DNA of 63,992 bases, counting the filler, from Craspedostauros australis (taxonomy: Eukaryota): NCBI GenBank assembly GCA_030167865.1. It is 11 parts of 11 records of this genome, joined end to end, with 100 filler letters (N's around TTAATTAATTAA, not from the genome) between each part and the next. Parts side by side here need not be neighbours in the genome. Positions count along the whole stretch, not along the records: positions 2,102 to 24,556 come from JALAGF010006005.1; 10 more parts are not named here. The stretch is one strand, 5' to 3'. Both the position numbers and the translations under genes were made by a program. Below are positions 12,715-51,698 of this stretch, piece by piece. Under the pieces are notes generated by a model. That model was not told the DNA's origin, did not search any database, and was given only the letters and a program-made list of their open reading frames with translations. Position 1 is the first letter of the stretch; each line of letters starts with the position of its first letter.

Positions 12715-15450
12715 ATGATGATCAGCACCAAGACAATCGCAACCACCGCTACTCTCCTTGTCATCTTCATGGCAATGACCGAAGCTCGCCTCAATGGACG
12801 CAAGATTACAGATGCAGCTGATGAAATGCACCTGGCATTGCGAGCCACCCGCAAGCTCAGGACTGATCTCGACGTCGGCAACATCAAGACTGGGAAAACA
12901 ACAAGTTCAACCACGAGTCACCATCGGCTCAGCCGACTGACACAGAGTTGTCCGAACTAACCTCATCGCCGACTGGACCACCAACCGCCAGCCCGACCAC
13001 TACCAGCTCCACGGGTCCCCCGACCTCATCTCCCATAGATGAGGCGGGCGCGTCACCAACAGGCCCACCGACCACCTCGCCAACCGAGATGCCCTCGATG
13101 CCACCGGCCACCCAAACAGTCTCTTCTCCCACCTCCCAGCCCACTCTCATGCCAACATCCAAGCCATCAGCTGCCCCAATCGCAATCACCTTCGACTCCA
13201 CCATCGAAGTCTCTTGCCAACCAGATGGCGACACCGCTCTCACGCCAGAAGAAGCCAGTACCAAGACCATCATCTGCAATGCCGCCAAGCCATCCTGCCG
13301 CGAGGCCGTCACCGCCGTCAAGGAGTCCGCAGATTTGCAGAACTTCTTCGGATGCGCAGGAGACCTCGGCGAAGGAGCCGCACGCAAGCTCTTCAACCAA
13401 TACGCATCCAATGACATGCTCGCTGGTCAATTGGCGTTGATCGCTGCCACCAAGCCGACCCTCATCACCGAGCGACCGGACGCAATGCAGGCGACCTGCA
13501 TGGCCATCGGGATGGCCCAGTCGCCACCCGCAATCGATCCATGCTGCCAAGGATCTTCGGGATGCACCTCTGTCACCGGTTCTGCCTCCGACTCTCCTCC
13601 ATTCATGACCATCGCAGTCACTGCATGTACCGGCGACAGCGCTTGCAAGGACATGGGCCCCAATCCTCTCATTCTCGATTCCTCCTGCACTGGCGTGAGT
13701 GCATGTGAATTGATGAATGAGAACGAGATCAATCCCTTCATCACAGGAGTCACCTTCGTTGGCGAGATGGCGTGCATCAGCCCTCGATCTTGCGAGGGAG
13801 TGGGACGTCGATCCCATGGTGATGTGACCATCCAGACTGGCGCATGCATCGGATCCGAAGCATGTAACTCAGCTGGACGCCGTGTGGAACAATCAGGCTC
13901 GTCCTTCCGCTTCCGCAGCCACATCCACATTGGCTCGAATGCTTGTGTTGGCAGCAACGCCTGCAAGGATGCCCATTCAAGCGTGAATCACGGCGCTGGT
14001 GGCAAGCTTGCAGGTAGCTTGACCATCGGCGATGGTGGCTGCACCGCTGATGGGTCATGCGAGAAGATGGGTTTCAACGACAGGATGAAAACGGACATCA
14101 TTGTCCCTCCTGATGGATGCGGCGCTGTTGAGAGCTGCAGAGGATGCATGACGAACACTGAATGCGCTATTGATGAGGTGTACCTGATCAGTGACGTTGA
14201 TGGTGCCTGTCCCAAGGGAGGAAGCGACACCAACTACAATCCAACAGGAGACAAGGTGGATGAGTACTGTGTTGGCAAGGATACCTTGCCCACAGACTGT
14301 CCGACTTTTTCCCCCACTCCTTTTCCAACACCTCTCACATCCAGTCCAACGAGTAGCCCCACCAATTTGGCATCTGCTGTGCCAAGCGCCCAGCCAATCG
14401 TCCCCCCGAACCTCTTTGGAAGTTGGATGTCTCGCCGGTCCGGGAGATACAGGATCGACGTTCAATACCATTACCACTGGTGAGGTCTTCTGCGATGGTA
14501 CAACGGGCACATGTGCAGAGTTTGTGGCCGCAATCGACAGTCTTGGTGACAAGGGGAAGATGATCAAGAGCATCTTTGGATGCAACGATGAAGCAACTCC
14601 CAACATCGTGACGTTGGATGTGGCTCAGAAACGCTTCAACAAGATCAAGAACGATGCGGGTGTGACCAATGCGTTGTTGGACACAGTGGCGACCATGAAG
14701 CTCTACACTGGAAGTGGGCCTGCGGTGAGTGCAGCTTGCAATGGCTCATGCTGTGACGGTAGCAATGTGTGCACCACCTTGCCTACAACTGGCGTGATGA
14801 CGGTGAGCGACGGGTCTTGCAATGGCTCCCGTGCCTGCGGCGTGATGCGCCCCGACACAATCATACTCGAAAGCTGCAGTGGCAATCGACCTTGTGAGGC
14901 ACTAGGCTGGTTTGACCCGATAGAGCCAGCTGCTGATGTCGAAGTCGGATACAGGGTGATTGGACCACGAGCCTGCAACAATGCATTGCATGCTTGCATC
15001 GGGGTTGGAAAGAATGTCTTTGGCAACATACGAGTGGAAGAAGGAGCATGCATTGATGAAAGCGCATGCAACGATGTGGGTTCCCGCGCCAGCCAAGGGG
15101 CTACCACGTCACCGATCGTGGCAAATATCTTCATTGGAAAGAATGCATGCCAAGCGTTTTTCGCTTGCAATGGGTTGCATACAGCGCCCGGGGTTAGTTC
15201 AAAAACCGCAGGAAATTTGATCGTTGAGGAGGATGCATGTAACGGAGAAGAAGCGTGCAGATACCTTGCCCAAAATGACGCCGCAGTCAATGATATCCTT
15301 ATCAAGAAGGATACCTGCACAGCAAGCAACGGATGTAATAGTTGTGCACAGGCAGAGCTGTGTGGTGGAGATGTGGCAAAGACGTACGTGATCGACGACG
15401 CAAGCGATGACTGCCCTGGGCCAAACCCAAACGCTTGCGAAGTCCTGTAA
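12715..15450 (+). CDS. Secreted mucin-like protein with two PT-linker plus Cys-repeat modules, split by two frameshifts (pseudogene or assembly indels)
   Basis: Signal peptide ORF at 12715. Module 1 is in the -1 frame (about 12888-14405) and module 2 returns to the first frame. The modules align: STIEVSC/TSLEVGC, NFFGC/SIFGC, HIHIGSNAC/NIFIGKNAC, GKLAGSLTI/SKTAGNLIV. Confidence 0.75.
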
Positions 15451-15564
15451 AGTCTCGTAAAAGTAGAATGAGTGATAAGTTTAGAATTGACCGAAAATGA
15501 TGCAGTCCGCCCTCTCTCTCCCTAGAAACTCAATGAGAGTGTACCATGTGCTTTGCAGCGCCCG

Positions 15565-17709
15565 CTAGTTCGTTTTGGCCTCCGAGTGAATGCCAAGCGC
15601 CTGCTCGCGAGAGACTTCCCACACCTTGACGAGACTGTGGAATTCACCATTCTCACCAAATCCATCGACGCCCGCCTCGACGGCCTTGGTGTAAAAGTCG
15701 CGTGTGAATTGAACACCGGGTGTGATGAACGGAATCTCCACCGTCGATGCGGAGACCTCGCATGGCACACCGGAGGCATCGAGATCATCGAGAAGGTCGG
15801 GATATGGGATTTTCCAGATGGGATACTGCAGGGGACATTGAAATTTGCCCATCTCGGAATCCCTCCATGCCTTGATGTGGTCGAGATGCAGATCGCCAAA
15901 GGCCATGGTGATGGGAACGTCGGGGTAGGCCTTGCGCACGACGGCGAGGCCTTGCGCGATGCGTTCGGGGTAGGTTTCGCCGCTCGAACGGCGCAGGGGG
16001 ACGCCGACGAGGGAGAGCTTGAGATGTTTGGCCTGTTCCACGACCTTGTCGATGGGAATGTCCTGGTTGGCAATGATGCGGTCCCTGGCATCGAAGGAGG
16101 TGAGGAGAACGAGACCGAATCGTTGCGATGGCTCACACTGCTGATACGTCTTGGCGAGCGAACGGATGGTGAGGAAGGAATCCTTGCCACCGCTGAAGGA
16201 GAGGATAGTGATCTTGTCATGCGCGGCAGGGTGTAGGAAGGAGGAGGCTTCCTCCGAATCGAGCTCATCGTGCACCAACCACGCCGGCTGCTGGATGCGA
16301 GATGCTTTCGATCCGGGCCTGACGTTCTCGTGACTGTACGGACAATGCCGACAGCCGGAACCACAGCACTTGCCGCGATTCGTGTGGGCCAGCTCAGTCA
16401 TGACGGAGAATCCCGTCGCGGGATCTTTGTAGCTGAGCTCTCCCTTGTCACAGGCTTCCTTGTGGATCTCCGCAAACCCGGCAATGTCCTCTATGTCGGC
16501 GATCGCCGTGCCGATAATCCTGGATGGCTTCTCCTGCAGCAGATCGACGATGTCCCAATTGTCCTCGCGCGGTGGCAGAAACCCAAGCTTCGTGAGGTCC
16601 TGAATGACGCCGGGATGCGCCTGGCCATGCGCGCACGCCGCCATGATGGCCGTGCCGGCCAGGAGATGCGGCCCCGGCTGGGCGATGTAGATGTTGCCGT
16701 TGCAGGCGTAGAGGTTGCTCTGCTGGCACGAACGCAGCGGCAGCAGCTGCCGGCGCGACAACCACGTGTCACGAATGTTGCGCTGCAGATCAAAGCCACA
16801 GCATCCCACGAGGATGCAGTCGGGATCGGTCTTGTAGACCGTGTCCCACGTAAGCTGATGGGACTTTGGATCGCGCTGGGGATCCTTGTCCTTGCGGGCA
16901 AGCTGGATGCCGGCGTAGTCCATCATCTGGTAGGTCCAGTGTCCGCCGTCGAAGGGTGGTGCAAGCCATTCCAGGATGAGCATGCTGGGCCGTTTGTCGT
17001 GTTGATTGTCATCATCGTTGCTGGTGTTGTCGACAACCTCAGCTCCGCGGTACTTGCGCACTACGGACTGGATGCGCTCCAGATCGGCCACGAAGTCCCT
17101 GCGCATGTTGATTCCGCGCTGTTCCACGCCGCAGGCCTTGGCGACAGTCACGTAGCTGTCCGCCACATCGTCCATCGTGGTGGGTGTCAGGGAGACGACA
17201 TGAATGTCCGTCGCTTTGCCGTCTTTCGTCTGTCCCATGACGCGGTAGACGTCGGTGGTCGTCGGCGCGCAGACGCTGCACAGATCCTGCGTGAAGACGA
17301 CGGTGGGTCTGGCCAGCACGAACTCCTCCTTGACCAATCCGTACAGCGTTGGAATGTCATCCAGTTCTCGCAGTGGCGGTTCCTTGTCCGCATCACCTGG
17401 CAGATCGCAGACCTTGTTGGCCAGGTCGTATTCCCTGCGGGCCTTGGAGGTCTCCGTCACGGCATCGTGGATGGCGCTCTGCGATTCCATCTGCTCGGCC
17501 GTCAATCCATTCTTCGTCAACGTGCGGATCGCCTCCTCGCCATCTTTGGCACCATCACCGAACAGCACTTCCTCTCCCACCAGCTCATGGCATTCGTGGG
17601 TGATGCCAACGATGTATTGTCTCAGTCCCAACGCGAGGCAGATGGCCGTGGCCGATGGCTCCAGACACGCGATGCGCAGCTCCTGCTCTTGGTCTTTCGT
17701 TTCTGTCAT
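15565..17709 (-). CDS. Fusion protein: BtuF/TroA-like binding domain, DUF5522-like Cys-rich domain, Dph6/MJ0570-like PP-loop ATP pyrophosphatase
   Basis: LEPSATAICLALGL..VGITHEC, VFTQDLCSVCA, ILEWLAPPFDGGHW; then HKEAC..YKDPATG..RGKCCGSGCRHCPY; then SFSGGKDS, AFGDLHL, YPIW, GVDGFGENGEFHS. Intact 714-aa ORF with no introns needed. Confidence 0.87.
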   Translation of the reverse strand: MTETKDQEQELRIACLEPSATAICLALGLRQYIVGITHECHELVGEEVLFGDGAKDGEEAIRTLTKNGLTAEQMESQSAIHDAVTETSKARREYDLANKVCDLPGDADKEPPLRELDDIPTLYGLVKEEFVLARPTVVFTQDLCSVCAPTTTDVYRVMGQTKDGKATDIHVVSLTPTTMDDVADSYVTVAKACGVEQRGINMRRDFVADLERIQSVVRKYRGAEVVDNTSNDDDNQHDKRPSMLILEWLAPPFDGGHWTYQMMDYAGIQLARKDKDPQRDPKSHQLTWDTVYKTDPDCILVGCCGFDLQRNIRDTWLSRRQLLPLRSCQQSNLYACNGNIYIAQPGPHLLAGTAIMAACAHGQAHPGVIQDLTKLGFLPPREDNWDIVDLLQEKPSRIIGTAIADIEDIAGFAEIHKEACDKGELSYKDPATGFSVMTELAHTNRGKCCGSGCRHCPYSHENVRPGSKASRIQQPAWLVHDELDSEEASSFLHPAAHDKITILSFSGGKDSFLTIRSLAKTYQQCEPSQRFGLVLLTSFDARDRIIANQDIPIDKVVEQAKHLKLSLVGVPLRRSSGETYPERIAQGLAVVRKAYPDVPITMAFGDLHLDHIKAWRDSEMGKFQCPLQYPIWKIPYPDLLDDLDASGVPCEVSASTVEIPFITPGVQFTRDFYTKAVEAGVDGFGENGEFHSLVKVWEVSREQALGIHSEAKTN

Positions 17710-18212
17710 TCTGGCTGGGACAGCAGTGCACTCTGTTGCTGTATATTGCTGTATGTTGTACTGTGTTGCTATTGCGATTGCGATTGCTATTGCTGTTCGA
17801 TGTATGGTAATAGATTCCCGCTGAATGTTACACTTTGTGGCTCCAACAAGGAAAAACGCGCAGAAACGAGATCCCTGATGCGGGTTGTTGCGTGGCGCGA
17901 GAGAACCTCACAAATTGTGCCGATCTTTGGCGCTCTTGAAGAACGTGCTTCGCATTCTAGTTTCGTTCTGTAGACTTTAGTGTACATGATGCGCAGAACA
18001 AGAGGATGGGTTGGGTACGCAGAGTCACTGTATTGGTACCGACAGAGCGATTCTAAACTAACCTGTCCAGATTATTCAGTTGTTGAATTGATAGAGTGTC
18101 TCTGAATCTGCATCTTCATCCATGCCTCGCTGCTACCTCCATCACAGGCACCCTAACAAGCCACGGCGGCTTGTCCATACCATGCCTTTGCATGGTCTCA
18201 ATCCATCATAAC

Positions 18213-20777
18213 TTAATTCATCTCCTTTTGCTTGCACTTCCAGCACTGGCACGGCCCGGGGTTGCCGTCGGTGACGCCCATCTGACGACGGATCTGCCCC
18301 CAGTTCGTGTTGAGCTCGTTCGTGCGCACGAGATCGCCCTGGTTCACGATCACGGTACCGCGAGGACGCGCCAGCTTGGTGGCGTAGCCCGGCAGCGGCG
18401 TGAGGTCCCAGTCCTCCGTGTTGGGCACGAGGAAGGAGCCGTATCCCAGCTTCTGCATGGTGTCGACGATACCGACGTTGAGCTTTTGGAGCAGCTCGGG
18501 CGAGTACTTCTTCAGAGCCTTTCCGATACCACCGGAACGCGGCTTGTACGAACCGAGCTTCTCGATGGTCTCCGCGGCGAAGCAGTGCTCGATGCGACGG
18601 CAGAAGAAGTGCATGTGATCGACGTCGAGGGCGTGTTCCAGCACGCGTGCCATGACGCGGTCGGTGTGGCGCGTGAGATCTTCGTATCGCACGAGCAGGG
18701 TGGGGATTTCCTGGGCCAGCCAGTACTCGTGGAAGTCGCGCCAGACCTGGATCTCCTTCATGGCCATCTCCTCGAAGGCGGCGCGATTCTTGGCGCGGAC
18801 CTCCTCCGACACGGACGTGGTATGCGTTCTGGTCATCATGAGGTTAAAGTAAGAGTCGATGGCATCGTAAGGGTTGCGCACCAGCAGGATGACGCTGGAG
18901 GCCTTGAAGGGTGGCACACCACGGCGTTCGGGGAAATGCGTCTTGACGAACTGCACCATGCCGTTGCCGACGGCGGCCTCTCCGACGAGATCGTGCTTCG
19001 CCAGACCTCCACGCATGTCGGATCCCGTGACACGCACGGTGGTGCGTTCGTAGAGGGTTCTCATGAGGGAGTTTCCGGAACGCGGGTAGGATGCGAGGAT
19101 GGCCACGGGCTGGTTGATGGGAGAAAATAGCATGAGCTCGTACTTTGGCGGGTTGGGGAATGGCTTGCTCTCCCTGGAGCACACGAGCACTCTCTCCCAC
19201 TCGTCGTTGGCCAGCGTTGAAGTGGACTTGTTCTTGTCGTAGGTGAGGTTGGGAAAGTCCTTGGCGTTGGCACGCTTGTAGAGCCTGCGGGAATTCAATC
19301 GTTCCAGGAGGGTGTGGGGGTCGACGATCCCGAGCTGGCTGTTGAGCTGGATGCGGGGGCGTGCCGGGAAGACGAGGTTCGCCGGCGGCACCACCTGGCC
19401 CTGCTGCTCGGCGGGCTTGCCTGTTTTGGTGTCGAGCATCTTGGTGGAGACCGGGCGTGACATCTTGGTTGGATCCGTCGTTGCATAATTGGGCAATACA
19501 TCTGGGTTGGCGACACCCGCTTTTGTTGCTGCGTCGTTGTCGGCACCAGCCGTAGCATCAGTGGCATCTGGATCCTTGCACTCTTCCACCTTGGTTTCAG
19601 CCTCGGCACCAGCGTCAGCCGTAGTAGTAGCAACGGTGGCGTCTGCATCCTTGCTGTCTTCCACCTTGGTTTCAGCCTCGGCTTCTGGCGTGGCAGCTGC
19701 AGGATCTGCTTCGGAATCCTTCTTGTCATCGGCAGTTGGTGCTTCCACCGCAGCTTCAGCTTCTGGTTTAGCCTCAGCGCTTGCCTCTCCAGTCTTCTCC
19801 TTCTCCTTCTCGGCCAGGGCCATGAGCCGCATGTGCTCCGCGACGGTCTGCGGCTCGCTGTTGGCGTTAGCGTCGGCAGCAGCAACCGCGTCCTCCTTGG
19901 GCTCCTCCTGAGCATCCTTCTTCTCATCCACGGGAAGCATGCGCAGGACCTGACCGCGACGCGGCATCTCTCCCTGCTTGACGACCTCCTGCGCGAACTT
20001 CTCGTTCTGCCGCATCCTCATGCGCTGCTGGTTGACCTGCTGCAGGTACCTCTGACGCTGCTGCGGTTGCTGCAGGCGGTTGAAGATCTGCTGCTCCTTG
20101 GGGTTTAGGTTGACCATGACCTGTCCCTGCGCGTTGAGGGTGGCCCCGTTGGCGATGAGCTGCTCGCGGTGCTTCTGCTTCTGGATCTCCTGCTGCTTGA
20201 TGGACATGCCCCAGTTGGCCGGGTGCATGGTCTGCGGGCGCTTGCCGAAGTCCGGATGTCCCGGCGGCGGCGAGTTGGGCACGAAGAGCGGCCCCAGCAT
20301 GGCGGCGTGCAGCCAGTTCTGGCGTTCCCAGTCCTGCAGGAAGGGCATGATGACGAAGACGATGTGCGGGCGCAGGTACTCCGTCATGAACCGGATCTGC
20401 GGGTGGTGCGGCTGGTTGGTGCCGAGCGGCGTGCGGAAGGGCGGACGCGGGTAGCTGCGCTGGGCGATGTCGCGCACGTCCGACTGGTCCACGTGCGGGT
20501 ACTTCTCGTCGTTGATCTTGGTGAGCCGCTGCAGCTCGGCCTGGATCTTCTGGTTCTCCTGGATGGCCTTGGCGCGCTTCTCGGCCATCTCCTTCTTCGC
20601 GGCCTCCTGCCGTCGCATCTCCTTGAGGCGCTGGATGTGCCGATCGGCCTCGCTCGAGATCTCCGTCTGCAGCTCGTTGTCGGCCTTGGCGATCTTCTTG
20701 CCGGATTCGGAGGCCTTCGGTTCCGGTGGGCGGGCGGCCGCCATGGCCGTCGCGGCTTGTTCAGCGGCAGTCGCCAT
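18213..20777 (-). CDS. PAPS-dependent sulfotransferase domain protein with long coiled-coil/low-complexity N-terminus
   Basis: LASYPRSGNSLMR (5'-PSB loop), FVKTHFP, LLVRNPYDAIDSY (3'-PB motif), LLVRYEDL. Confidence 0.87.
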   Translation of the reverse strand: MATAAEQAATAMAAARPPEPKASESGKKIAKADNELQTEISSEADRHIQRLKEMRRQEAAKKEMAEKRAKAIQENQKIQAELQRLTKINDEKYPHVDQSDVRDIAQRSYPRPPFRTPLGTNQPHHPQIRFMTEYLRPHIVFVIMPFLQDWERQNWLHAAMLGPLFVPNSPPPGHPDFGKRPQTMHPANWGMSIKQQEIQKQKHREQLIANGATLNAQGQVMVNLNPKEQQIFNRLQQPQQRQRYLQQVNQQRMRMRQNEKFAQEVVKQGEMPRRGQVLRMLPVDEKKDAQEEPKEDAVAAADANANSEPQTVAEHMRLMALAEKEKEKTGEASAEAKPEAEAAVEAPTADDKKDSEADPAAATPEAEAETKVEDSKDADATVATTTADAGAEAETKVEECKDPDATDATAGADNDAATKAGVANPDVLPNYATTDPTKMSRPVSTKMLDTKTGKPAEQQGQVVPPANLVFPARPRIQLNSQLGIVDPHTLLERLNSRRLYKRANAKDFPNLTYDKNKSTSTLANDEWERVLVCSRESKPFPNPPKYELMLFSPINQPVAILASYPRSGNSLMRTLYERTTVRVTGSDMRGGLAKHDLVGEAAVGNGMVQFVKTHFPERRGVPPFKASSVILLVRNPYDAIDSYFNLMMTRTHTTSVSEEVRAKNRAAFEEMAMKEIQVWRDFHEYWLAQEIPTLLVRYEDLTRHTDRVMARVLEHALDVDHMHFFCRRIEHCFAAETIEKLGSYKPRSGGIGKALKKYSPELLQKLNVGIVDTMQKLGYGSFLVPNTEDWDLTPLPGYATKLARPRGTVIVNQGDLVRTNELNTNWGQIRRQMGVTDGNPGPCQCWKCKQKEMN

Positions 20778-24556: not shown

Positions 24557-24656
24557 NNNNNNNNNNNNNNNNNNNNNNNNNNNNNNNNNNNNNNNNNNNN
24601 TTAATTAATTAANNNNNNNNNNNNNNNNNNNNNNNNNNNNNNNNNNNNNNNNNNNN

Positions 24657-27600
24657 CACGAGTGCGCAGTCCATCTTCTGCAGCATCATGATCACCATCA
24701 TCACACGGTACGTGACGTCGTGGATGACAGGCGAGTGGTGTTCTTGGTAGTCCACTCCTGCAATCTGCGAGTAGCCACACGCCACCAGACGCGCTCGATA
24801 GGTTCCATTGCGCTTTAATTTAAACACCCATTTGCACTTGCAGCATCTGCGGTCTCTCGGAATGGATGAGCGCTTGATTTTGCTGTAGACGGATCGAGCA
24901 TCCATCGAACCGAACTCCTTTGCGATGGCAGCTCTGTAGCCCTTCCGGTGTGTTGCATTCGGATGGTTGAATGCTTGGTCGAAGGTTGATGGCTCGATGT
25001 GCGTCGATGTCTCTCCTGTCTCATCTTGGGTGGTTGCGCAGATCTCTGTCTCGAAGTCGTCGGTACTTATTGCGTTGTTACCGAATAGAGCATCTGTGAC
25101 TGCGTTGGTGATGTCCGATGGAGGAGAATCGCTGTCTTCGTCGTCCGTAGCTTCGTCGTTTTCCTCATTCTCGTCGGTGGTGTCGTCATTGGTTTCGTCA
25201 TCGTTGTTGGTCTCCTCGCTGCTGTCCTGATCGTTGTTTGTGTTGCTTTCGTCGTCGTCGCTGTCGCTTCCCCTATTGAAGACGGATAGGTTGGTTGTAA
25301 ACCGCTTGCCTTCATGCTTCTCTTTCTTTCCTGGCTTGTTGTAGTTCGCAAGGTTGCGCAATTCGCTCTTTCCTTTCACGTTGGATGGCAGCGATGCACG
25401 CGACTTCGCATTCGTTTTTGCTTGATGCTTGCTTCGCTCGATGTACCGCTGTTGTCGTTCGCTGCGAGTGATATCGCGCTTACTTGGTCGTCTTGGGGGA
25501 ACAGCTGTCGTGGTGCGACTAGTTTTCGAATCGTCGTTCGCTTCGTGCGAACGCTTGCGTGATGTTGGCGGAGTGCGGAGGATGCTTGGCGGGACGTTCG
25601 GTGGGGCGACATCTTCAATGTCGGTCACTGTGTCGTCGTCGACTGGAATCGCGTCAACCTCTTCTTCGGACACGGTCCCTTCGTCCACTGGTGTGGTCGT
25701 CGTCTCGCTCGCGAGACCTGGTGAGTCCTCCTTCGCACTCGTGTTGTTGTTGGTGTCGTCATCGTCCTCATCGTCGTCATCTGAGAGGACGTGGTAGGAG
25801 TTCGCGTCGGCGAATGACACAGAGCGTCGCTTTGGCTTGGTTCGAGCTGTGTGGGACGGCGCTGTCCCTTCCCTTCCGACCAGGATGAATCCATCATCGT
25901 CAGTCTCCGTTGGGTGCTCGGCGTCGGTTGCGACAATCTGACTCCCTTCCGGTTTCCCATCGTCCGTGCTGTAGGTCCAACCCTTGAAGTGCCCGTACGA
26001 TCTGTTGAGCCACTTCACGTCTCTGGTGCAGACGATGGACTTGGTGGATGGGTGGTACATGTTGTAGACGCCGGATCCATGCTGTGGAGCATATCCAACG
26101 AACAACATCGCCTCGCCTCTGTTCTGGAGTTTCGCCGTCATGCCTCCGTAGGCCGTCTTGACGACTCCGACTTCGCCGAAGGTACGGAGTCCGCTCGCGT
26201 ACTTCGGATCCTCTCCGAAGAATAGATGGTGTGGCGANNNNNNNNNNNNNNNNGCCACAGTGATGTTGGCGACCGCGGTCGCGACGTTGGCTGCTGCAGC
26301 CCATAGACCATGTCTGTGCTCTTCGTTGAGCTGGGCGCCGTTCAGCATGGATCGCATCTTCGTGTACAAGTATGCAAACTTGCGCTCGACCCTGCCGTTC
26401 TGCTGTGGTGTGTTGGATGCCGTGTATTCGAATGTGACGTCGAATCCGGCTTCAAGCAGATAGACCTCGGATGCCTTGTTCTCTCCGCTGTTGTCGCCAC
26501 GGAAGATGATTGGCTTGCCGTCCATGTGTGCACGGATCTTCTGAAGNNNNNNNNNNNNNNNNNNNNNNNNNNNNNNNNNNNNNNNNNNNNNNNNNNGTAC
26601 AAGTATGCAAACTTGCGCTCGACCCTGCCGTTCTGCTGTGGTGTGTTGGATGCCGTGTATTCGAATGTGACGTCGAATCCAGCTTCGAGCAGATGGACCT
26701 CGGATGCCTTGTTCTCTCCGCTGTTGTCTCCACGGAAGATGATTGGCTTGCCGTCCGTGTGTGCACGGATCTTCTGAAGGAATCGCTTCAGGAAGGCNGG
26801 TTGGTCACNCTTGTTGGTGAGGAAGATGCTCCAGCAGTAATCTGTGTGGTCGTCTACGATCAACACCCAGTACCGCTTGTTTCCGAAGCTCGTGTGCTTN
26901 GTGTAGCTGATGTCGATGAAGAATCGCTCACATCGTCGCGATGCTCTCGCGATGGTCGCCTTCGGGACGTTCTTCACTCGTGCGTTGGCGATGGCACAGT
27001 GCTTGCATGGCGGCATGGTGCCAATGATGCTCCATCCGTGGTGCGATGCGGTCCGTTGCATTGCCTCCAGTGGGGCGTGTCCCAACATGCGATGGAGTGT
27101 GGATGCGTTGATGCCTTTCGGTGGATCCGATGTGACGGCCGCAGCCGTGATGTCTGTGCGTGGCTTGACTGCATGCATCTGCACGCCAGTCACAAAGCCA
27201 TTTCGCGTGCGGAACACTCGATCGAACACGATCTTGTTCCCGTTACCGTTTGCGATGTCCATGATGATACCGTTGTTTCCGATCTGGTACCCATTCTCCA
27301 GCGCCTTGTTCGTTGAGAACAGATTCACCCACATCTTGGGTGCGAACTTNACGTCGTTCAGTCTGATGGTGCGCTGTGTGTTGTCGCGTTGCTTCACTCG
27401 GAGATAGATGGACCCCATCTTTGGTGAGTTGAGTTGCGTGTTGTCACCGACCTTCACAAAGGATTGGATGTGGCGGATGTTGAACATCCCCTTATCCGAA
27501 TTCACAATGTGGCATGAGGCTCCACTGTCGGCGAGCCATGTGTGTTGATCGGGTGTGTCGGTGTGGTGGTTGGATGCACGAAAGCGTGTGCGATCCACAA

Positions 27601-30159
27601 CCATGATTGCCAACTCGTCGTCATAGGAGGAGTCGTCGTCGTCGGATGACTCATCCGTGCTGGAATCGTCCCAGTTGATTGGAGGGCGCATTGGTTCTGC
27701 TTGCTGTGGCGGCTCCGGTCTTGCCTGTCGCGGTGGCTCAGGTCGCCTCTCCTGTGGTCGNNNNNNNNNNNNNNNNNNNNNNNNNNNNNNNNNNNNNNNN
27801 NNNNNNNNNNGCGATCCACGACCATGATTGCCAACTCGTCGTCGTAGGAGGAATCGTCGTCGTCGGATGACTCACCCGTGCTGGAATCGTCCCAGTTGAT
27901 TGGAGGGCGCATTGGTTCTACTTGCTGTGGCGGCTCCGGTCTTGCTTGTCGCGGTGGCTCAGGTCGCCTCTCCTGTGGTCGGTGGTGAAGGAGTGCCGCC
28001 ATGCATCCTCCGAGGATGAAGTGCCGCTCCATGATGCTCAGTGGTGGTTGGCCGTGACGCTCAAGGATCCTGTTGAGAATCATGCTGTTTGCCAGGATCT
28101 CTTCGATTGACAGCAGCTCTGCCATGATGAACATTCCTGACACTCGCCCGACGAATGCCATCTGGATGCGTCGATTGTTGGGGAACAGGTTGCGGGCCCC
28201 ACAGAAAATGGCGTTGCTGATGATTTCGCGTTGTCTGATCTCGGCCGTGAATGTGGGGTACGGCACAGTGTCGTGCCTGCCGTGCGCTCCTTGTTGGTTG
28301 AAGAAGTCCGTGGGCCCAAAGCGTAGGCCGGTTGGGAAGATCACGTCTTCGTGGTGGTTCATGACTCGTTGACCCTCTGGTCTGGGAGGACGGAATCTGT
28401 TCCGGACGTAGAGTGGACGAGTTGCGTCGCTGTCGTCATCTCCGTCATCTTGAGCGATCTCTTCTTCGGCGGAGCCAGCGGCTGACGCCTCTTCGAAGAG
28501 ATTGTCGTCCAGGAGCATGTCTTGCTCAATCGGGGGCTCCCCGGCTTCCTCCATAGCGAGGATATCGATATCCTCCTCGGGGTCTTCTTCTCGGTTGCCG
28601 TTGCTTGGCAAATCGTGTGTGTTGAGGCAGTAATCGAAATCGAGATCAAAACGAGGCTCGTTGTCGAGCGTCACCTCGTGGATGATTGGTCCGTCGTTGA
28701 GCCATTCTGGGATGCTCGTGTCGTCGTGGACCTTGTCTATTCCTGGACGGTGTTGGAAGGTATCAAAGAATGAATCATCGACGACGTAGGCGGTGTGAGT
28801 GTTCGTGGGTGTGTCGAGCATGGTCATCACCATCTCGAATCTGTCGTCGGTGCCGTCCTGTGCCGTGCTTCCTTGCTCTTCCTGCTTTCTCTTTTCGTTG
28901 AACTTTTTCTTCCTGCAGTCTGCCTCTCGATGTCCTGGGATGCCACAGTAATGGCACTTCCCGCTGAAACCGTTGCCTCGACCTCTTCCTCTGTTGCCGC
29001 GGTTGCCTTGATTGTCGCGCTGATCTCCTCTTCTGTTGCCTCTGTTGTTGTAGCCTCCTCGTCGGCCGTTGTTGGATTGATGGTTGTTGTTGTTGTCGGC
29101 CGCTTGCTTTCTGTCTGGACAATTTGCAGACCGATGGCCGTACTTTCCGCAGTTGTGGCAGTTGCCTTTGAATCCGCCTGTCGCAGCCATCGCCGCGTCG
29201 TCGCGCTTGCTGCCCGTGTCTGCGAAGTCGTCCACGTACGCCTTTCCGCCTTGGAGCTTGGAGTATCTGTAGTTCAGCACATTTCGGATGGCCTCGATCG
29301 TCACCTTCTCTGGACCCATCTGCAGTTGGTATTCGAAGTTGCTCACTTCGTCATCGTAGTCTTTGCTGAGGCTGCTGAGCACTTGCATGATCAGCTCTCT
29401 CTCACTGATCTCGTATTTCACCTCTTGGAGGCGAGTGCGGAGCAGCTCAAGCCGTGTGACGNAGATGTCGGGATCCGTATCCCTCGCCATGCGTTCCGTG
29501 TTGAANTGGCGCTTCAGNCGCAGCACCGTGGATGCGTCGGTNGGCTGGTACTTCTCCTTCAGCATCTTCCATGCTGCTGCTGGGTTCCCCTCGGGGTGCT
29601 GCTCGTCACAGCATTGGTTGATCAGCTGGATCGCCTGCTTCCCAGTTCCTTGCTCTGCATCCATCATCAGGATCAGATCGCTGAAGCAGTCCAGCGCTAG
29701 TTCGCGCGTCTCTTCGAGGGCCTCCCTCTTCTCTTCGTCACTCTCTCTCTCGACGTCTTCTTTCGTTGGGATGGGCTTCTCTCCCATCATGATGTCCTTG
29801 AATCGCTGTGTACGCGCGTACGCCTTTGCTTGCGACTCCCACGCATTGTAGTCTTCCTTCTTTCCGCTGAAGGATGGGGCCTTGCGCCTCTTGTAGGTTT
29901 CCTTCGTCATCTTCTTTTTCGTTGTTGTCTGCTTGCTCGTGCCTCGTGTGCTGCCTGTCGATTGGCTCTCTTCTCTCTCTTCTTCTCTCTCTGACTCCTC
30001 GTTGTCGTTGGATGCGAGGGGATCGATGCCGCTGTCTCTCTCTGACGCGCTACCCCTGCCTTCTGTTTCCGTCTGCTGTACTTCTGTCTCGTACGCTTCC
30101 ACTTTGAACACTCGCTGTGATGGAGTCGATGTGGGTTGTCCTGTTGATGCCGATGTCGG
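24657..30159 (-). mobile_element. Ty1/copia (CoDi-type) retrotransposon: gag, extra domain, protease, integrase, RT start
   Basis: Two CCHC knuckles (CHNCGKYGHRSANC, CHYCGIPGHREADC), WLADSGASCH, LHRMLGH..CKHC, TPQQNGRVER, KWVFKLKRNGTYRARLVACGYSQ. Confidence 0.95.
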
Positions 30160-30259
30160 NNNNNNNNNNNNNNNNNNNNNNNNNNNNNNNNNNNNNNNNN
30201 NNNTTAATTAATTAANNNNNNNNNNNNNNNNNNNNNNNNNNNNNNNNNNNNNNNNNNNN

Positions 30260-33200
30260 TATGTGTTAAGCTTACTGTTGACAGGACGATCGAGTAAAAG
30301 GGCAGGGTTCATGCTGTCGTGCTTGAGCCGTTTGTGTTGTACAGCAACATGTCGTGGTGGTTCTGCGCATACTCAGCTGTTCAGTAGCCCCATCCGTAGA
30401 GCAGTACTTGATCCACGGGTATGGATATGCTTCAAGATGCCTGCAGGATTTGCAAGATGGTTAGCTGAACAGGTGGCGCAGTTGCATGAGCTGGAGGACG
30501 AGCAGAGCATGGATTGTGGTTCAACTATACACCATGCGNNNNNNNNNNNNNNNNNNNNNNNNNNNNNNNNNNNNNNNNNNNNNNNNNNNNNNNNNNNNNN
30601 NNNNNNGTCCCGAGTGGATCCCGGACCAAGTCTGTCCCAACTCTCCCTCTCGGCGTAGTGCGAAGCATGTCCCTGGAGTAAAAACCTCCATCGTTCGATC
30701 AACAGTTCACAATTTGTGATGCCCTCACCACCCCATAAGCATACGGCGCAGATGCTCAAACGCGTCCCGCGCGAGGCCTTTGGTGAAGATGTCGGCAATT
30801 TGGTGGGGTGTCGGCACGTGAAGGATCCGGATGAAACCCTCCTTGACCCAGTGCCAGAAGAAGTGCCACTTGGTTAGGAAATGCTTGGTTCGTGCCGTGA
30901 CCTTGTGCTTCGTTGCCAGTGAGATACACGCCTCGTTATCCTCAAACACGGTGCACTGGATGTTGGTTTGCAGCGATTGGTTGAGGCTGGTTGTTGCTTT
31001 CACTTCGTTGATGAGTTGTTGCATCGGGATGAGGGCGCGCATAGCGAGAGACAGCGCGGCGTACTCCGATTCCATTGTGGACAAGGCGATTTCTGTCTGC
31101 AGCTTCGATTTCCACACAAGTGGACAGCCACCGAGGATGATGACATACCCTGTGCGGGAGCGTACTGCGTTTGGAGAGTCGTCGGTCTCGCGCTTGTACA
31201 GGCCTGCGAAATCGGCATCAACGTAGCATTCCAGGTTGAGTTGACCCGTCGGACGCACGATGGTTCCCATGGTGTTGGTGTGGCGAAGGTAGCGCACTAT
31301 CATCTTGATTGCCTTTGCGTGTGGTTGGCGAGGGTCGTTGCTGAATCGCGCCACTTGAGAGACGGCGAAAGCCAGGTCGGGGCGTGTATTCGTAGTCAAG
31401 TAGAGTAGCATGCCAACGACGGAGCGATAGTTCCATGCCTCCTTCATTGGGGGTTGATCATTCGATGCTCCAAGGGCAAGTTGTGTTTTGGGTGTCACGT
31501 TGGGTTTGCAGTCTTGCATGCCTGTAGCGTCGATGATCTTGTTGATGAGGCCGGTTTGTTTGAGGTGGATGGTGTTGTTCTTGGGATCTCTGTGTAGCAA
31601 TATTCCCAGAAATTCCGTGAAGGTGCCTTCTTGTGTGAGATCAAATCCGCGCTTACGCATGGACTCAATGAATGCGTCTGCTTCTTCTTCCGTGCGCGAA
31701 GCAATGCCGGCATCGTCCACATAGAGGACGATCATCATCCCATCGCGCATGAACAGGCACCGTTCTTGATCACACGCGTGAAATCCTTCCGCGAGGAGAG
31801 CACGCACAAGGTGTTGGTACCATAGCTTGGGAGCTATAGTTAACCCATAGAGGCTTTTGATCAGCTTGAGGCATGTATCGGGTCCGTTGGTTGATCGGAA
31901 TCCGCGTGGAAGGTGTAGGTATACCGGACGANNNNNNNNNNNNNNNNNNNNNNNNNNNNNNNNNNNNNNNNNNNNNNNNNNGGAATCCGCGTGGAAGGTG
32001 TAGGTATACCGGACGATGGATGTCGGCTTGTACGAACGCGTTTGAGAAATCGATTGATGTCGTGATCCAGCGAAGCAAAATGGAGAGGATGAGGAAGACG
32101 CGAACAGAGGACCAGGCAACGACCGGGGCGTAAGTTGCTTCCGTTTCGGTCATCATGTCGCCTCTGCAGCACCACCGCCCCTTGTACTTCTTTACCGTGC
32201 CGTCGGGCATCCGCTTGCGCCGAAACACCCACGTGCCAGGGAAGATGCGATCAGTAGTGGTGGATTTTGGCACCTCAATCCAAGTTCCCTTTTTGGTAAG
32301 GTAATGAATTTCTTTGTGTGCGGCTGCCATCCATTCTTGTTTGTTGTCATCGTTCATCGCCTTGCTGAAGGAGAGGGTGTCGGGATCGGTCTTGGATGCT
32401 TTGTAGCTGACGTGTCGATCCGAGATGCTGAGATCGCCCCCGGTCGTGAAGAAGTTGAGCAAGTCGTACGTGATGAAGGCGCGGTGGTCGTCGATGTGGT
32501 CGTCACCATCGTGCTCAAGGGTTGCAGCCAACGCGTAGTGTTCGTCGGACTCGTCATTCTCATGTTGGCGTGGAAAGTGAGCGTTTGTCGGAGCTGAAGC
32601 ACGGTGTTCGGCCGGTTCGAATTCGCTTGGCGGAGCCATGATTGTCGGTGGTACCTCCGGCGCGACGCCGAGTTGGATGTGCAGGTGCAGTATACCGATT
32701 TCAAAACGCTCGTCGTGCGTAATGAGGTGCCAGGCGAAACCCGCTCGTCGCATGAAGTCCTGCACCCGTTCGTCTTCGTCCGGTGGTCGTAGGCCATTTT
32801 CCATGGCGGCGATGGCCCGTTCCAGGGTGTATCGCTGACCTTGCGTTCTTGGTATGAAGCTGAAGTATGAGACGGGGAGGTGGTATTCGCCTGTTTCGAG
32901 CATTTCTTCGACGGCATCGACGAATCGGCGAATGGCGTAGTAAACGCACTGGCTCCTTGCGGCTTCCGTTGGAAATCGAAATTGCACTACATGATCGAAG
33001 TATTGGCCGATGTGTCGAGTGATGTTGACATGGTGTGGCCAAAGGTGGCTGATGTCGATGGGGTGCATTGTGGTGCCTGGAAGTGGATCGTCGTCCTCCG
33101 AGGACGAGTCGGAGTGGTTGCTCATCATGAGGATGTGGTGCTCGTTGGTTGGCGTTCCTCCGCTTGCTGCCGCCTCTTCTTGTTCCTTGCGCATTCTGGC

Positions 33201-33956
33201 TCGGATTTCGAGTTGTTGGATGCGAAGCATCCTTTCCATCTCGAGGTCGCCCTGCGCCCAGCGCCGTTCTTCCCGGGTCAATTCTGTGGTGTCGATTGTC
33301 GCTAGATCTCGGAGCATGGAGTCAGTGTCGCGCACCAGAGCGTTTGTCTTCTGTGTTACTGCGCCATCTTGATGAGTAGCGTACTGCCTGAGTGTCGCAC
33401 GACAGGTTTGGAGAGCGTGCTTCATGTTTTCCATGGCTTGGTCTTTGCTGGGTTCACTCGTCGCGATGGTGGTTACGTTTGCGCTGGTTTTTGATGGTTG
33501 TGTGATGTCGTCGACCCAAACCACTTTTCCACCCAACGTGTCGTAGGTGAGGCGCTCGACGGTCCGTCGTTCTCGTGGTGTGCGCTTGTTGATGCGTTCA
33601 GAGCGGCGTAGTGGAGGCGGTTTTGCCTTTCTAATCGTCGGTTGCTCTGTCGGTGCGGTGATGGGTTTGCGCAGCGGTGAAGTCGGAGGAGAGTCGATTG
33701 GTGGTTGTACGTTGTTGTCACTGTTTTCGTTGACGACTCCCTCTGCTGGCGGCAACGGTTCAGCGTGATTTGGTGGACCTTCTCCGGCTCCCTCTGTCAG
33801 CGACATTGTTGGCGTCGGCTTATTGATATCGATGGTTGTTGGCGAGCGGCTAATTTACTGAGGTGGTTGCACTTGGTCGATTGGGGTGGCATCGATTTTC
33901 GTGTGTGATGTCACGGGTTGCCTCAAAATGTGAGTTGGTGAATTTTGTTCACTTAC
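30260..33956 (-). mobile_element. Ty1/copia (CoDi-type) 3' half: long IN-RT linker, RT, RNase H, PPT and probable LTR
   Basis: GTWVFRRKRMPDG..YKGRWCCRGD, LYVDD, CYVDADFAG, VFEDNEAC, QIADIFTK, stop at 30725. Purine tract GAGAGGGAGAG near 30641-30651. Confidence 0.93.
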
Positions 33957-47299: not shown

Positions 47300-50200
47300 A
47301 TGACAAACCATGACGACATGGGCGATACTGACGAAATGAGTGACAAGGTCTCCCTGGAAACAACCTCATATTCCGGCGGTGTGGAGGAAGACAGTATCGA
47401 TGACGTGCAGCAGGTTCGAAATGCTTCCAAGTCAGAGACCGCCCACGTCCAGATATGGCGCACCGTGGTGACCTTTGTGTTACTCGCCACGGCCATTGCC
47501 ATCACCTTCATCACGTATAAGGTGAGTGCTGCGCTACGCATTGACTTTTGTCCAGGCCTTGAAGCAGCCGGTCAACATGCTCCACCGTTCGACCGCAACC
47601 CCATTCGCCATCTCGTCGTGAAATCGGTCTCCACATACCCACTCACATTATCATCTCCTTTGTCTTGCACTGTTCTATTGCAACCGAGAACATTACGCAA
47701 TGTGTCCACCTGCACTATTCTTCCTGTTCCGCAGTACCTCGACAATGAACAGATCGAGAACTTCGAAGTTGCGGTAAGTTGAAACACGAAGTCGTGCAAA
47801 CATCCCACAAACTGTCTCGCCCTCGTCAACGAACTGTTCGTGCGCACACTCGTGCCTGCATGCTTGGCCATTGACATGTTCGTGAGACGACGGATGGCAC
47901 CGCGGTATCGCGGTGTATCGCATTCCACTCCGTTGCATTCCATTCAACCAAAGACCCACTGACAGACCGTTGTACCCTACTTTATATGCCTTTCCCATTG
48001 CGCCATCATGTGGATGCAGTACGAGCAATTCTCTCGGGCAGTGGGCAGTGCCGTCACGGATCAGCAACTCTCCATCCGCACCAACATTCGGCAGGCATGC
48101 AAGATCATAGCATCGCAGGCTGAGGCCACCAATCAAACATGGCCATTTGTGACGATCCCACACATCGTCACAAGTTTCGTCCCGTCCCTTCAGGAAGCCA
48201 AATTAGAATGGATGAACGTGAATCACGCCGTCAAGGGCGATCAGGTCGAGGCGTGGTTGGATTATGCCAACAACAACTATGAGAAAATGATCAAAGAAGG
48301 TCACATGGACGAGCACGGGGACCTCCACGAGCTGATCCCAACAGGATACACACCCTACTTGAAGGAGTTCAATGTTCGACGGATCTTCCCAGGCGGCGAG
48401 AACGAGCCAGTCTTCATCCCCCAACAGAAACTACGGGATCTCAACTTCGCTTCCTTCCAGCATGTCGATGCCATGCTAACGTACGGTTACATCAACTACA
48501 ACACATACGCATCCGACGAGATCCAGGTGTTCTTGGATGAGCTGCTTTTGCTGCAGGAAGAGCTCCTGTTCTTTGCATCGAGCCCGTACGGGATCCCGCC
48601 CGGCATCTCATACTCGGAAGAGGAGCATGAAGCACGCCACGACAAGACTTCCTCCGTCGACCATCCGCACTTCGTGTTTCAAACACCAGTGCAAAAGGAC
48701 CCAAACGACCCCTCGTCAGAGGTCGTTGCTGTGGTGGCTGGAGGCGGAGCCTGGGACACAGTGCTGTACGATCTCCTTCCAGAAAACGTCAACGGTTTGT
48801 ACGCCATCCTCGAAAACGATTGCAACCAAGCGCAAACGTTCGTCATCGACGGAAGGAAGACAGTATACCTCGGAGGAGGTAAGTTGTATCATTGCTGAAC
48901 GAACATGAAATCCTCGCACTGTATCAATCATGACGCATGCACGAAGGGCTTCACCATGTTGCTGGCAGGATGCTGTTGCTGCCATCATGAGGTCCACCAA
49001 ACGATAGTACGAGAGACAGCCTTCCAAAATGATTGCCTACTTGTGGCTGCTTGTCTAAATGTTTGGATGCATGTGCGGATGGATGTACACATGTATTGGG
49101 TGCTTCCGTACCTCACGCCACCACTTCGATCCTTTTGCTCTCCCTACATGCTCATTCGCACAACACATCAACAGAGGACTTCCATGAGAAAAAGTACGAC
49201 AAATACGTGCACTTTATCAACCTGGCGCTCCACAAACACCCCAAATTCAACGAGACGGTGAATCATTGCAAGTATTCCATGAAGTTGTACCCATCCCAAC
49301 AATTCCAGGATCAGTACAGCAACAACACACCGAAGATCTTCGCTATCGCAGTGTTCGTGACATTCATGGTCATCATCTTGGTCTTCTTCGTCTACGACAT
49401 GTTCGTGCACCGCCGCAACGAGAAGCTGATTAACAATGCCGCCCGCACCAACGCCATCGTGTCATCCATGTTCCCCACGCAGATTCGCGAGCGTCTGATC
49501 TTGAATGGAAAGACCGGGAACGGCAAGAAGGGCACCCATCGGATCACCGACCTGAAGAGCTATCTCAATGGAACTTCCAACGAGTCGGCGATGAGCAACA
49601 AACCCTTGGCTGACTTGTTCCTTGAGACAACCATCCTGTTTGCCGATATTGCTGGGTTCACCGCCTGGAGTTCTGTGAGAGGTAAGGCACCGAGCGGCTG
49701 CTTCGCTGGTGGCGACTATTCTAACTTTGGCGATGGCTGTATGTGCCCACGTTGTTATGAGTGCGCTTGGGCTCGCCACGCCATCATGTCATCTCGCTTT
49801 CGCCTGCAAACCCACTACCGCACAACTTTACTCATCCTTGTACGCGTACCGCATACTCTATACGTACCAACCATGGTACCAACTATTATGTGAACACATG
49901 GCATCATCATACACAGAACCATCGCAAGTCTTCACTCTACTTGAGACCGTCTTCTCGGCTTTCGACCAGATTGCAAAGCTCCGCCGTGTGTTCAAAGTCG
50001 AGACTGTGGGTGATTGCTACGTGGCCGCAGCTGGAATCCCAGAGCAGCGGGCCGACCATGCCATCATCATGGTTCGTTTTGCCCGCGACATTCTGACTCG
50101 CATGGACAGTCTGGTGAAGGAGCTGGAAATCACGCTCGGTCCTGACACTGGCGACCTGTCGCTTCGCTGCGGTCTCCACTCTGGCCCTGTGACTGCGGGC

Positions 50201-51598: not shown

Positions 51599-51698
51599 NN
51601 NNNNNNNNNNNNNNNNNNNNNNNNNNNNNNNNNNNNNNNNNNTTAATTAATTAANNNNNNNNNNNNNNNNNNNNNNNNNNNNNNNNNNNNNNNNNNNN

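Follow-up and report, generated by a model that had tools for sequence, protein, structure and literature searches.

A gene for a three-domain protein lies on the minus strand of a 63,992-nt stretch of DNA from the diatom Craspedostauros australis (assembly GCA_030167865.1; hereafter the window, whose numbering is used throughout), and we analysed this protein, its homologues and the genes around them. The original prediction had read the gene as a single intact open reading frame (ORF) joining a binding-protein-like domain, a Cys-rich DUF5522-like domain and a PP-loop enzyme domain, and this reading was confirmed: one frame is open over 714 codons, the closest in-frame stop upstream of its ATG is 67 codons away, and mapping of residues to positions reproduced the coordinates given earlier for all three domains (Table 1). 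The profile hidden Markov model and structure searches proposed there as a check were run for each domain, and identified DUF5522 by Pfam and the folds of the binder and the PP-loop domain by models. The full-length AlphaFold2 (AF2) model, built from a 37-sequence alignment, had a mean predicted local distance difference test score (pLDDT) of 86.8 and a predicted template modelling score (pTM) of 0.60.

Table 1. Parts of the three-domain gene, with positions in the window and residues of the 714-amino-acid (aa) protein
Feature	Position	Strand	Basis
Whole gene, three-domain fusion protein, single-exon ORF, 714 aa	15565..17709	-	ORF scan; colinear with homologues
Leaderless class-III (BtuF/TroA-like) binding-protein domain, residues 11-392	16534..17679	-	AF2 model, Foldseek, homology to bacterial leaderless Peripla_BP_2 proteins
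THEC motif (H38, C40)	17590..17601	-	Invariant in bacterial and diatom binders
DLCSVCA motif (C144-x2-C147)	17266..17286	-	Invariant in bacterial and diatom binders
CCGFD motif (C304)	16789..16803	-	C304 kept in 20/21 bacterial and 12/12 diatom sequences
Flexible linker, residues 398-410	16480..16518	-	pLDDT <50 in AF2 model
DUF5522 domain, residues 416-462	16324..16464	-	Pfam PF17653; packs on PP-loop domain in model
CCGSGCRHCPY motif within DUF5522, residues 448-458	16336-16368	-	Sequence
DUF71-type PP-loop ATP pyrophosphatase domain, residues 497-706	15592..16221	-	VIA, Foldseek, profile search against PDB sequences
SGGKDS PP-loop motif (ATP phosphate binding), residues 506-511	16177..16194	-	Sequence; role as in the available text of PMC3541065
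GENGEFH, DUF71-B12 subgroup signature replacing Dph6 EGGExE, residues 685-691	15637..15657	-	Sequence; rule as in the available text of PMC3541065

For the N-terminal domain, Pfam returned only a sub-threshold match to Peripla_BP_2 (PF01497; 15.6 bits against a cut-off of 27.5, which many homologues of the protein pass), and an NCBIfam scan of the window protein gave no match to any BtuF model. When the N-domain of the AF2 model was searched with Foldseek, the matches were class-III binding proteins (RhuT, PhuT, ShuT and BtuF, TMt 0.7-0.75), the best being the heme binder RhuT (5y8b, E=1e-10, TMt 0.75) with PhuT and ShuT next, and BtuF was matched as 5ysc (E=4.3e-8) and 1n2z (E=1.7e-6, TMt 0.75). 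The domain thus shares with BtuF (1n2z, 1n4a, 5ysc) the two-lobe class-III fold with its backbone helix (TMt 0.71-0.75), but it lacks a signal peptide and hence is cytoplasmic, it has no BtuCD partner, its sequence score is far under the BtuF model cut-off, and heme binders fit its fold equally well or better. Judged from its sequence the protein is without a signal peptide, as the original prediction had noted: the first beta-strand begins at residue 12, and no more than 25 residues (median 11) precede the first strand in 35 of 37 aligned full-length homologues, so that its placement inside the cell also holds. From bacteria to diatoms, H38, C40, C144 and C147 of the binder do not vary, and C304 is kept in 32 of 33 sequences; together with the conserved residues of DUF5522 they hint at ligation of cobalt, a zinc site or an Fe-S cluster. 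The H-x-C loop is presumably equivalent to the cleft loop by which Escherichia coli BtuF touches B12, and we take the invariant His and the four Cys to be absent from BtuF itself.

The DUF5522 domain (PF17653) was found at E=1.8e-22, with 79.6 bits against a cut-off of 25, and its C-C-x3-C-x-H-C-P motif, with four Cys and a His, is invariant in the family alignments. Residues 405-714 were modelled with a pTM of 0.89 (pLDDT 90.8), so that the PP-loop domain and DUF5522 together make a single compact unit. The PP-loop part matched PF0828 (3rjz) in VIA with Z=16.0 and a root-mean-square deviation (rmsd) of 2.8 over 176 aligned residues, the runner-up having Z=9.8, QueC 9.5 and NH3-dependent NAD synthetase 7.4; Foldseek on the C-terminal half agreed with the DUF71 fold of the solved members PF0828 and PH1257 (2d13, E=1.8e-7), and the family profile searched against PDB sequences found 3rjz at E=2.2e-7. 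The window protein alone gave no PF01902 match at E<=1 and one weak PP-loop match in NCBIfam, whereas bacterial orthologues clear PF01902 with 39.8-55.1 bits against 23.2, and four diatom homologues carry precomputed PF01902 matches. SGGKDS and ENGEFH are both intact in the window protein and invariant in the family alignments. Fold searches of the C-terminal half were dominated by the PP-loop domain, and the ESM Atlas returned solely other DUF5522 clusters with scores of 0.86 or less, among them stand-alone DUF5522 proteins of 53-70 aa in Actinomycetota and tailed phages. One diatom homologue carries the name of human C1orf53; in the available text of the literature searched C1orf53 occurs in gene lists only, and a search for DUF5522 found no paper.

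Dph6, NadE and QueC are PP-loop enzymes that activate a carboxylate as its adenylate before ammonia turns it into the amide, and QueC bears a four-Cys zinc site. The window enzyme has the superfamily fold of QueC and NAD synthetase and is predicted, by analogy, to carry out the same ATP-dependent conversion of a carboxylate into an amide; these two act on other substrates, and the Cys-rich part of the window protein, in contrast to QueC, is a separate N-terminal domain, DUF5522. With Dph6 (PF0828 3rjz/3rk1; yeast DPH6) it shares the fold and the ATP-binding loop, and it probably shares the type of chemistry, adenylation followed by amidation. It differs from Dph6, however, in an altered catalytic-site motif, in a merely remote sequence relation (the profile match above), in the absence of RidA domains, and in having orthologues in bacteria, under B12 riboswitches.

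According to the available text of de Crecy-Lagard (2012; PMC3541065), DUF71 splits into Dph6, with the motif EGGE/DxE, and DUF71-B12, with ENGEF/YH; 75 of 102 DUF71-B12 members adjoin B12 transporter genes, the subgroup anticorrelates with bacterial CbiZ and co-occurs with CbiB, a CbiZ-like role was cautiously proposed for it, and bacteria are said to make no diphthamide. By its motif the window PP-loop domain is a member of the DUF71-B12 branch: when the family profile is aligned with PF0828 (AGEGGEFE) in HMMER, N falls on G and H on Glu188. TIGR03679, the Dph6 model, gave zero match for the window protein and 31.9 bits, against a cut-off of 197.3, for a bacterial orthologue. Five genomes that carry the family (carriers) each have one PF01902 gene, which is the DUF5522-PP-loop gene studied here, and when 1.84 billion representatives were searched exhaustively with phmmer, no more than 744 were reached at E<=0.001, the best 150 of the 744 all belonging to the DUF5522-PP-loop family. 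On these sequence features the window enzyme is not of the Dph6 type, and the original prediction had correctly set it apart from diphthamide enzymes. Its remark that no characterised pathway has this architecture was also right, with the B12 link of the PP-loop branch published in 2012 (PMC3541065); we found no biochemical study of DUF71-B12 in the available text of the literature. The window protein has in common with the published subgroup the SGGKDS loop, ENGEF/YH in place of EGGExE, and bacterial members in B12-uptake contexts. It differs in that the family here always has an N-terminal DUF5522, that diatoms and one Myxococcales metagenome-assembled genome (MAG) add a fused leaderless binder, that CbiB is present in only 1 of 10 carriers rather than co-occurring, and that the DUF5522-bearing form is present in eukaryotes.

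A search with the whole protein gave 238 full-length homologues at E<=0.001, the best with E of about 1e-200, 98-99% coverage and a top identity of 49%, and the three-domain architecture is conserved across diatoms: Nitzschia, Cylindrotheca, Seminavis, Pseudo-nitzschia, Cyclotella/Stephanocyclus, Thalassiosira (P0102 and P0116) and Skeletonema were among the 120 matches listed. Because three of the homologues (P0023, P0041 and P0094) are transcriptome ORFs labelled complete, the three parts lie on one transcript in other diatoms. Querying with the PP-loop domain gave 540 proteins, which included bacterial DUF5522-PP-loop proteins of 270-300 aa with ∼44% identity, and eukaryotic forms with these two domains occur in Chromera, Rhodella and others. 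Database names for the homologues conflict, and include ABC (ATP-binding cassette) substrate-binding protein, diphthine-ammonia ligase and C1orf53. In a quick, unrooted IQ-TREE tree of the two C-terminal domains (103 rows; L014 and L039 omitted because of stops), all 25 eukaryote rows and three Myxococcota rows (L070, L076 and L078) formed one clade with a Shimodaira-Hasegawa-like approximate likelihood ratio (SH-aLRT) support of 99.

In bacteria the same parts are encoded as neighbouring genes. One genome per prokaryote species was scanned, which gave 549 relatives; the 80 loci retrieved belong to Erythrobacteraceae, Pseudomonadales, Woeseiaceae, Gemmatimonadota/Longimicrobiales, Verrucomicrobiota, Nitrospinota and Myxococcota. 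An N-domain homologue was present beside the DUF5522-PP-loop gene in 26 loci (tblastn, E 2e-53 to 3e-8): in 24 it is a gene of its own, immediately upstream and in the same orientation, in one (L078) it is fused, and in one (L015) it lies 2.4 kb downstream. The binders that adjoin DUF5522-PP-loop genes start at the first strand without a leader and pass Peripla_BP_2; in NCBIfam they matched models for F420-0, heme, enterobactin and BtuF alike, each score falling far short of its cut-off (for the L015 binder and BtuF model NF002894, 33.7 bits against 234). In L078, a Myxococcales MAG, all three domains are in one 654-aa ORF, which makes it a Rosetta-stone link among the three parts. Fusions considered in L020, L022, L024, L032, L038 and L044 were rejected, an in-frame stop separating two adjacent genes. 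No FecCD permease or ATPase was found within the bacterial operons, and neither btuCD nor cbiB was adjacent to the loci; the recurrent neighbours besides DUF6580 are lineage-specific and are not B12 genes.

Of the 80 loci, 32 were searched with Rfam, comprising the full set of 26 that have a binder and 6 that lack one; in 10 of these 32, DUF6580-binder genes are headed on their own strand by a cobalamin riboswitch. The order riboswitch-DUF6580-binder-DUF5522-PP-loop, with abutting or overlapping genes, was found in nine loci (L002, L008, L021, L029, L040, L052, L058, L060 and L065); in L015 only DUF6580 and the binder follow the riboswitch, and the PP-loop gene is ∼1.6 kb upstream of the riboswitch, past a major facilitator superfamily (MFS) gene. 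The B12 link proposed earlier for the window protein is thus supported by riboswitches that precede its bacterial counterparts; of the co-location named there as a check, B12 riboswitches were found, and btuCD and cbiB were not adjacent. L060 and L052 each have a second cobalamin riboswitch, which drives a gene on the minus strand (L060:10827-13156; L052, ∼10.8-13.15 kb) for a TonB-dependent receptor with plug and barrel (646 aa). This gene converges on the DUF5522-PP-loop gene, and receptor and operon may form a compact B12 uptake island. Other riboswitches were seen at two loci. In L009 (473-1859, minus strand) an opposite-strand cobalamin riboswitch precedes a 379-aa BLUF-domain protein with a weak B12-binding-domain signal (E=7e-4), which may be a light- and B12-sensing regulator, and in L015 (15141-17393, minus strand) a thiamine pyrophosphate (TPP) riboswitch precedes the gene of a TonB-dependent receptor, possibly one for thiamine-related uptake, at a distance of a few kb from the B12 operon.

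DUF6580 is a hydrophobic protein of ∼176 aa (e.g. L029:8679-9209 and L015:12666-13187). Its gene is present in 12 loci (the nine above, L015, L004 and L009), and in 10 of these 12 it is the first gene after the cobalamin riboswitch, making it a candidate inner-membrane B12 importer. The operons therefore begin with a small hydrophobic membrane protein, in the slot expected of an importer like BtuM (available text of PMC6072759); however, DUF6580 has no sequence match to BtuM, and the diatom gene has no DUF6580 partner in the window. A relationship of DUF6580 to BtuM was rejected by sequence, since a comparison with the solved chains, that of BtuM among them, gave no match.

The B12-related gene content of the carriers narrows the choice of substrate. 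MetH is present in 5/5 carrier genomes, FecCD permease in 5/5, CobS in 2/5 and a strong CobQ-type match in 1/5; CbiB is present in 1/10 and CbiZ in 0/10, in assemblies of which several are single chromosomes (3-5.7 Mb) and for which completeness is not stated. The carriers are B12 users that are mostly unable to rebuild the nucleotide loop. Because MetH is present and CbiB and CbiZ are nearly absent, the substrate should be a complete cobamide, and because CbiB is missing, a CbiZ-like cleavage would yield a dead-end product. This scarcity argues against the CbiZ-like idea of 2012 and for action on complete cobamides; of the traits of the DUF71-B12 subgroup, the CbiZ half fits the carriers and the CbiB half does not. 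In one carrier (G002, contig 8, ∼18.6-24.9 kb) CobS, FecCD permease and a CobQ-type gene are clustered, an arrangement that resembles part of a late B12 salvage cluster and is missing from the other four. As far as published accounts say, in the text available, most diatoms are likewise B12 users without the means to reassemble the nucleotide loop. Roughly half of the algae surveyed depend on bacterial B12 (10.64898/2026.08.07.738727 and a preprint on horizontal gene transfer (HGT) in diatoms, available text), and for the fate of B12 inside algal cells the available text of the literature names only the uptake protein CBA1 and the COBT, COBS and COBC homologues.

Taken together, the window protein probably processes imported B12 inside the cell. 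An intracellular, B12-linked function we regard as likely; the fuller explanation, that of a cytosolic corrinoid-handling enzyme in which the binder and the DUF5522-PP-loop unit re-amidate a cobamide, we hold to be about evenly balanced between right and wrong, and re-amidation as the actual reaction, argued by analogy from the PP-loop chemistry of Dph6, NadE and QueC, is a tentative first choice that we consider rather unlikely when taken by itself. In the proposed scheme, B12 would enter bacteria through the TonB receptor and then DUF6580, and would enter diatoms probably via CBA1, as the available text of published work has it. After entry into the cell the leaderless BtuF-like domain would catch the cobamide and hand it to the tethered (diatom) or neighbouring (bacteria) DUF5522-PP-loop enzyme, beside which the short flexible linker would keep the binder. 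SGGKDS would bind ATP, a corrinoid carboxylate would be adenylated, and most likely ammonia would displace AMP, turning a deamidated inactive cobalamin into usable B12, so that the overall role would be a repair or salvage step and not synthesis. The interpretation in the original prediction is therefore supported in part: an intracellular, B12-linked protein that is neither Dph6 nor an importer component stands, and it is the corrinoid as ligand, the adenylation and the amidation, all three, that we infer.

Several observations weigh against this explanation. Riboswitch operons were confined to the Pseudomonadota type among the loci tested, and Rfam found no same-strand riboswitch in 22 of the 32 (14 binder-type loci of Nitrospinota, Gemmatimonadota and Myxococcota, L004 with scant upstream DNA, L009, and the 6 binderless loci). 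Moreover, B12 riboswitches also govern B12-independent substitutes, and hence riboswitch control alone is no proof of B12 handling. An adjacent binder is lacking in 54 of the 80 loci; among five genomes without one, a single query did not find the binder elsewhere in three, and in the other two a homologue is present elsewhere in the genome, with short flanks that hold no riboswitch. The heme binders RhuT, PhuT and ShuT outrank BtuF as structural matches to the N-domain. The invariant Cys and His of the binder and the four Cys of DUF5522 are needless for a simple amidation, and these clusters hint at metal, Fe-S or Co-S chemistry. Finally, the authors of PMC3541065 argue, in the available text, that His in place of Glu188 of Dph6 may mean another reaction.

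The conserved Cys and His residues would find a use in a B12 processing or trafficking chaperone, in which the Cys/His cleft of the binder and the DUF5522 cysteines would ligate cobalt (Co-S), and the protein would remove the upper ligand, swap it for another or reduce the cofactor ahead of its transfer to methionine synthase, with ATP spent on a coupled step, as a functional analogue of animal MMACHC/MMADHC or the decyanating BtuM. H38, C40, C144, C147, C304 and the DUF5522 C-C-x3-C-x2-C-His set are conserved from bacteria to diatoms, Cys-cobalt ligation is documented for BtuM (available text of PMC6072759) and for MMADHC/MMACHC, and carriers need complete B12 only. We nevertheless consider a chaperone improbable, because the fully conserved adenylating PP-loop site would be left without a role, and the protein has no sequence similarity to MMACHC or BtuM, DUF6580 being without a BtuM match as well. 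In addition, the cysteines may merely hold structural zinc, as in QueC.

Alternatively, the enzyme may remodel cobamides, the role put forward for DUF71-B12 in 2012. It would then take the place of CbiZ and cleave pseudo-B12, or unsuitable cobamides of other kinds, so that a new lower ligand can be attached. This is consistent with the published pattern of anticorrelation with CbiZ and co-occurrence with CbiB (PMC3541065, available text), with the absence of CbiZ from 10/10 carrier genomes, and with a Phaeodactylum tricornutum metE mutant which, according to the available text of 10.64898/2026.08.07.738727, remodels pseudocobalamin, CbiZ and late-pathway genes not having been found there. However, 9 of 10 carriers lack CbiB, which is required to use the cleavage product, 3 of 5 lack CobS, and hydrolysis would mean the PP-loop enzyme run backwards. 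Moreover, Thalassiosira pseudonana cannot remodel (same source), yet the fusion is present in members of the genus Thalassiosira (P0102 and P0116). We therefore think a remodelling role has only a small chance of being correct.

The ligand might also be something other than a corrinoid, namely heme, another metal-tetrapyrrole or a metal chelate, with the riboswitch reflecting B12 sparing or unrelated co-regulation. The leading fold matches are heme-binding proteins, the conserved Cys and His could ligate iron, a riboswitch is absent in 22/32 loci, and the sub-cut-off NCBIfam matches of the bacterial binders point to no one ligand. Against this, ENGEFH places the enzyme in the B12-linked subgroup, 10 operons are headed by a cobalamin riboswitch and riboswitch-driven TonB receptors are nearby, and fold similarity among class-III binders cannot discriminate ligands; a non-corrinoid ligand thus seems to us a slim prospect. 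That the protein is the organism's diphthine-ammonia ligase with extra domains, as the source names 'Diphthine--ammonia ligase' and 'diphthamide synthase' and the fold in common with PF0828 would have it, is hardly credible given that ENGEFH for EGGExE with His at the Glu188 position contradicts the defining motif, TIGR03679 does not match, only 744 representatives were reached at E<=0.001 by exhaustive phmmer, and near orthologues occur under B12 riboswitch control in bacteria, which make no diphthamide (PMC3541065, available text). Equally hard to credit is a substrate-binding part of an ABC importer, the NCBI name of the Nitzschia homologue, which has the binding-protein fold and the source names of homologues on its side: signal peptide or membrane anchor is absent in 35/37 homologues and in the bacterial forms, the domain shares one chain with a soluble enzyme, and neither a permease nor an ATPase is encoded in the bacterial operons, in agreement with the original prediction, which had set the protein apart from ABC importers.

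The remainder of the window contains no B12 genes and is otherwise ordinary eukaryotic nuclear DNA. The gene is flanked by a Cys-rich 416-aa ORF without a Pfam family (14200-15450, plus strand) and by an 854-aa ORF (18213-20777, minus strand) whose C-terminal end holds a sulfotransferase domain, and neither flanking gene is related to B12. The one sequencing run mapped covered only 15300-15520 and 33 bases near 17765-17797, outside the gene, and so has no bearing on its expression. Outside the gene the window carries an MFS transporter, a sulfotransferase-like ORF, ankyrin repeats, pieces of copia-type retroelements and a cyclase-phosphodiesterase fusion. The copia-type ORFs (24609-33806 and 62802-63992; gag, zinc knuckle, Pol beta-barrel and RVT_2) are split across frames and look like decayed or nested copies of long terminal repeat (LTR) retrotransposons. 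The fusion (49733-51646, plus strand) joins a guanylate/adenylate cyclase catalytic domain with a cyclic-nucleotide phosphodiesterase domain.

The B12 link of the PP-loop branch and a predicted salvage function were already in print in 2012 (PMC3541065, available text). The DUF5522 subfamily, the diatom-conserved three-domain fusion and the absence of CbiB in carriers were not found in the literature searched, in which a search for diatom, cobalamin and 'diphthamide synthase' gave no paper; the main text of the diatom HGT preprint has no 'BtuF', 'periplasmic' or 'diphth', and its supplements may list the gene family. Also new is that bacteria encode the same parts as neighbouring genes in 26 of 80 loci, and once fused. 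The fusion is Rosetta-stone evidence that the leaderless binder, DUF5522 and the PP-loop enzyme act as one unit, it corrects the three conflicting database names of one protein, and it occurs in organisms with genetic tools and B12 bioassays. Moreover, the scarcity of CbiB and CbiZ in carriers narrows the possible reaction, so that the question posed in 2012 becomes testable with defined substrates. The boldest form of our proposal, which we offer as a speculation and think unlikely to hold in full, is an intracellular B12 repair or proof-reading system common to marine bacteria and diatoms, in which the cobamide would be held through Cys-cobalt bonds while ATP and ammonia restore its hydrolysed side-chain amides. 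If true, DUF71-B12, DUF5522 and the leaderless BtuF-like proteins would each have a function for the first time, human C1orf53 would gain a lead through DUF5522, and inactive or inhibitory B12 breakdown products in seawater would be turned into usable vitamin.

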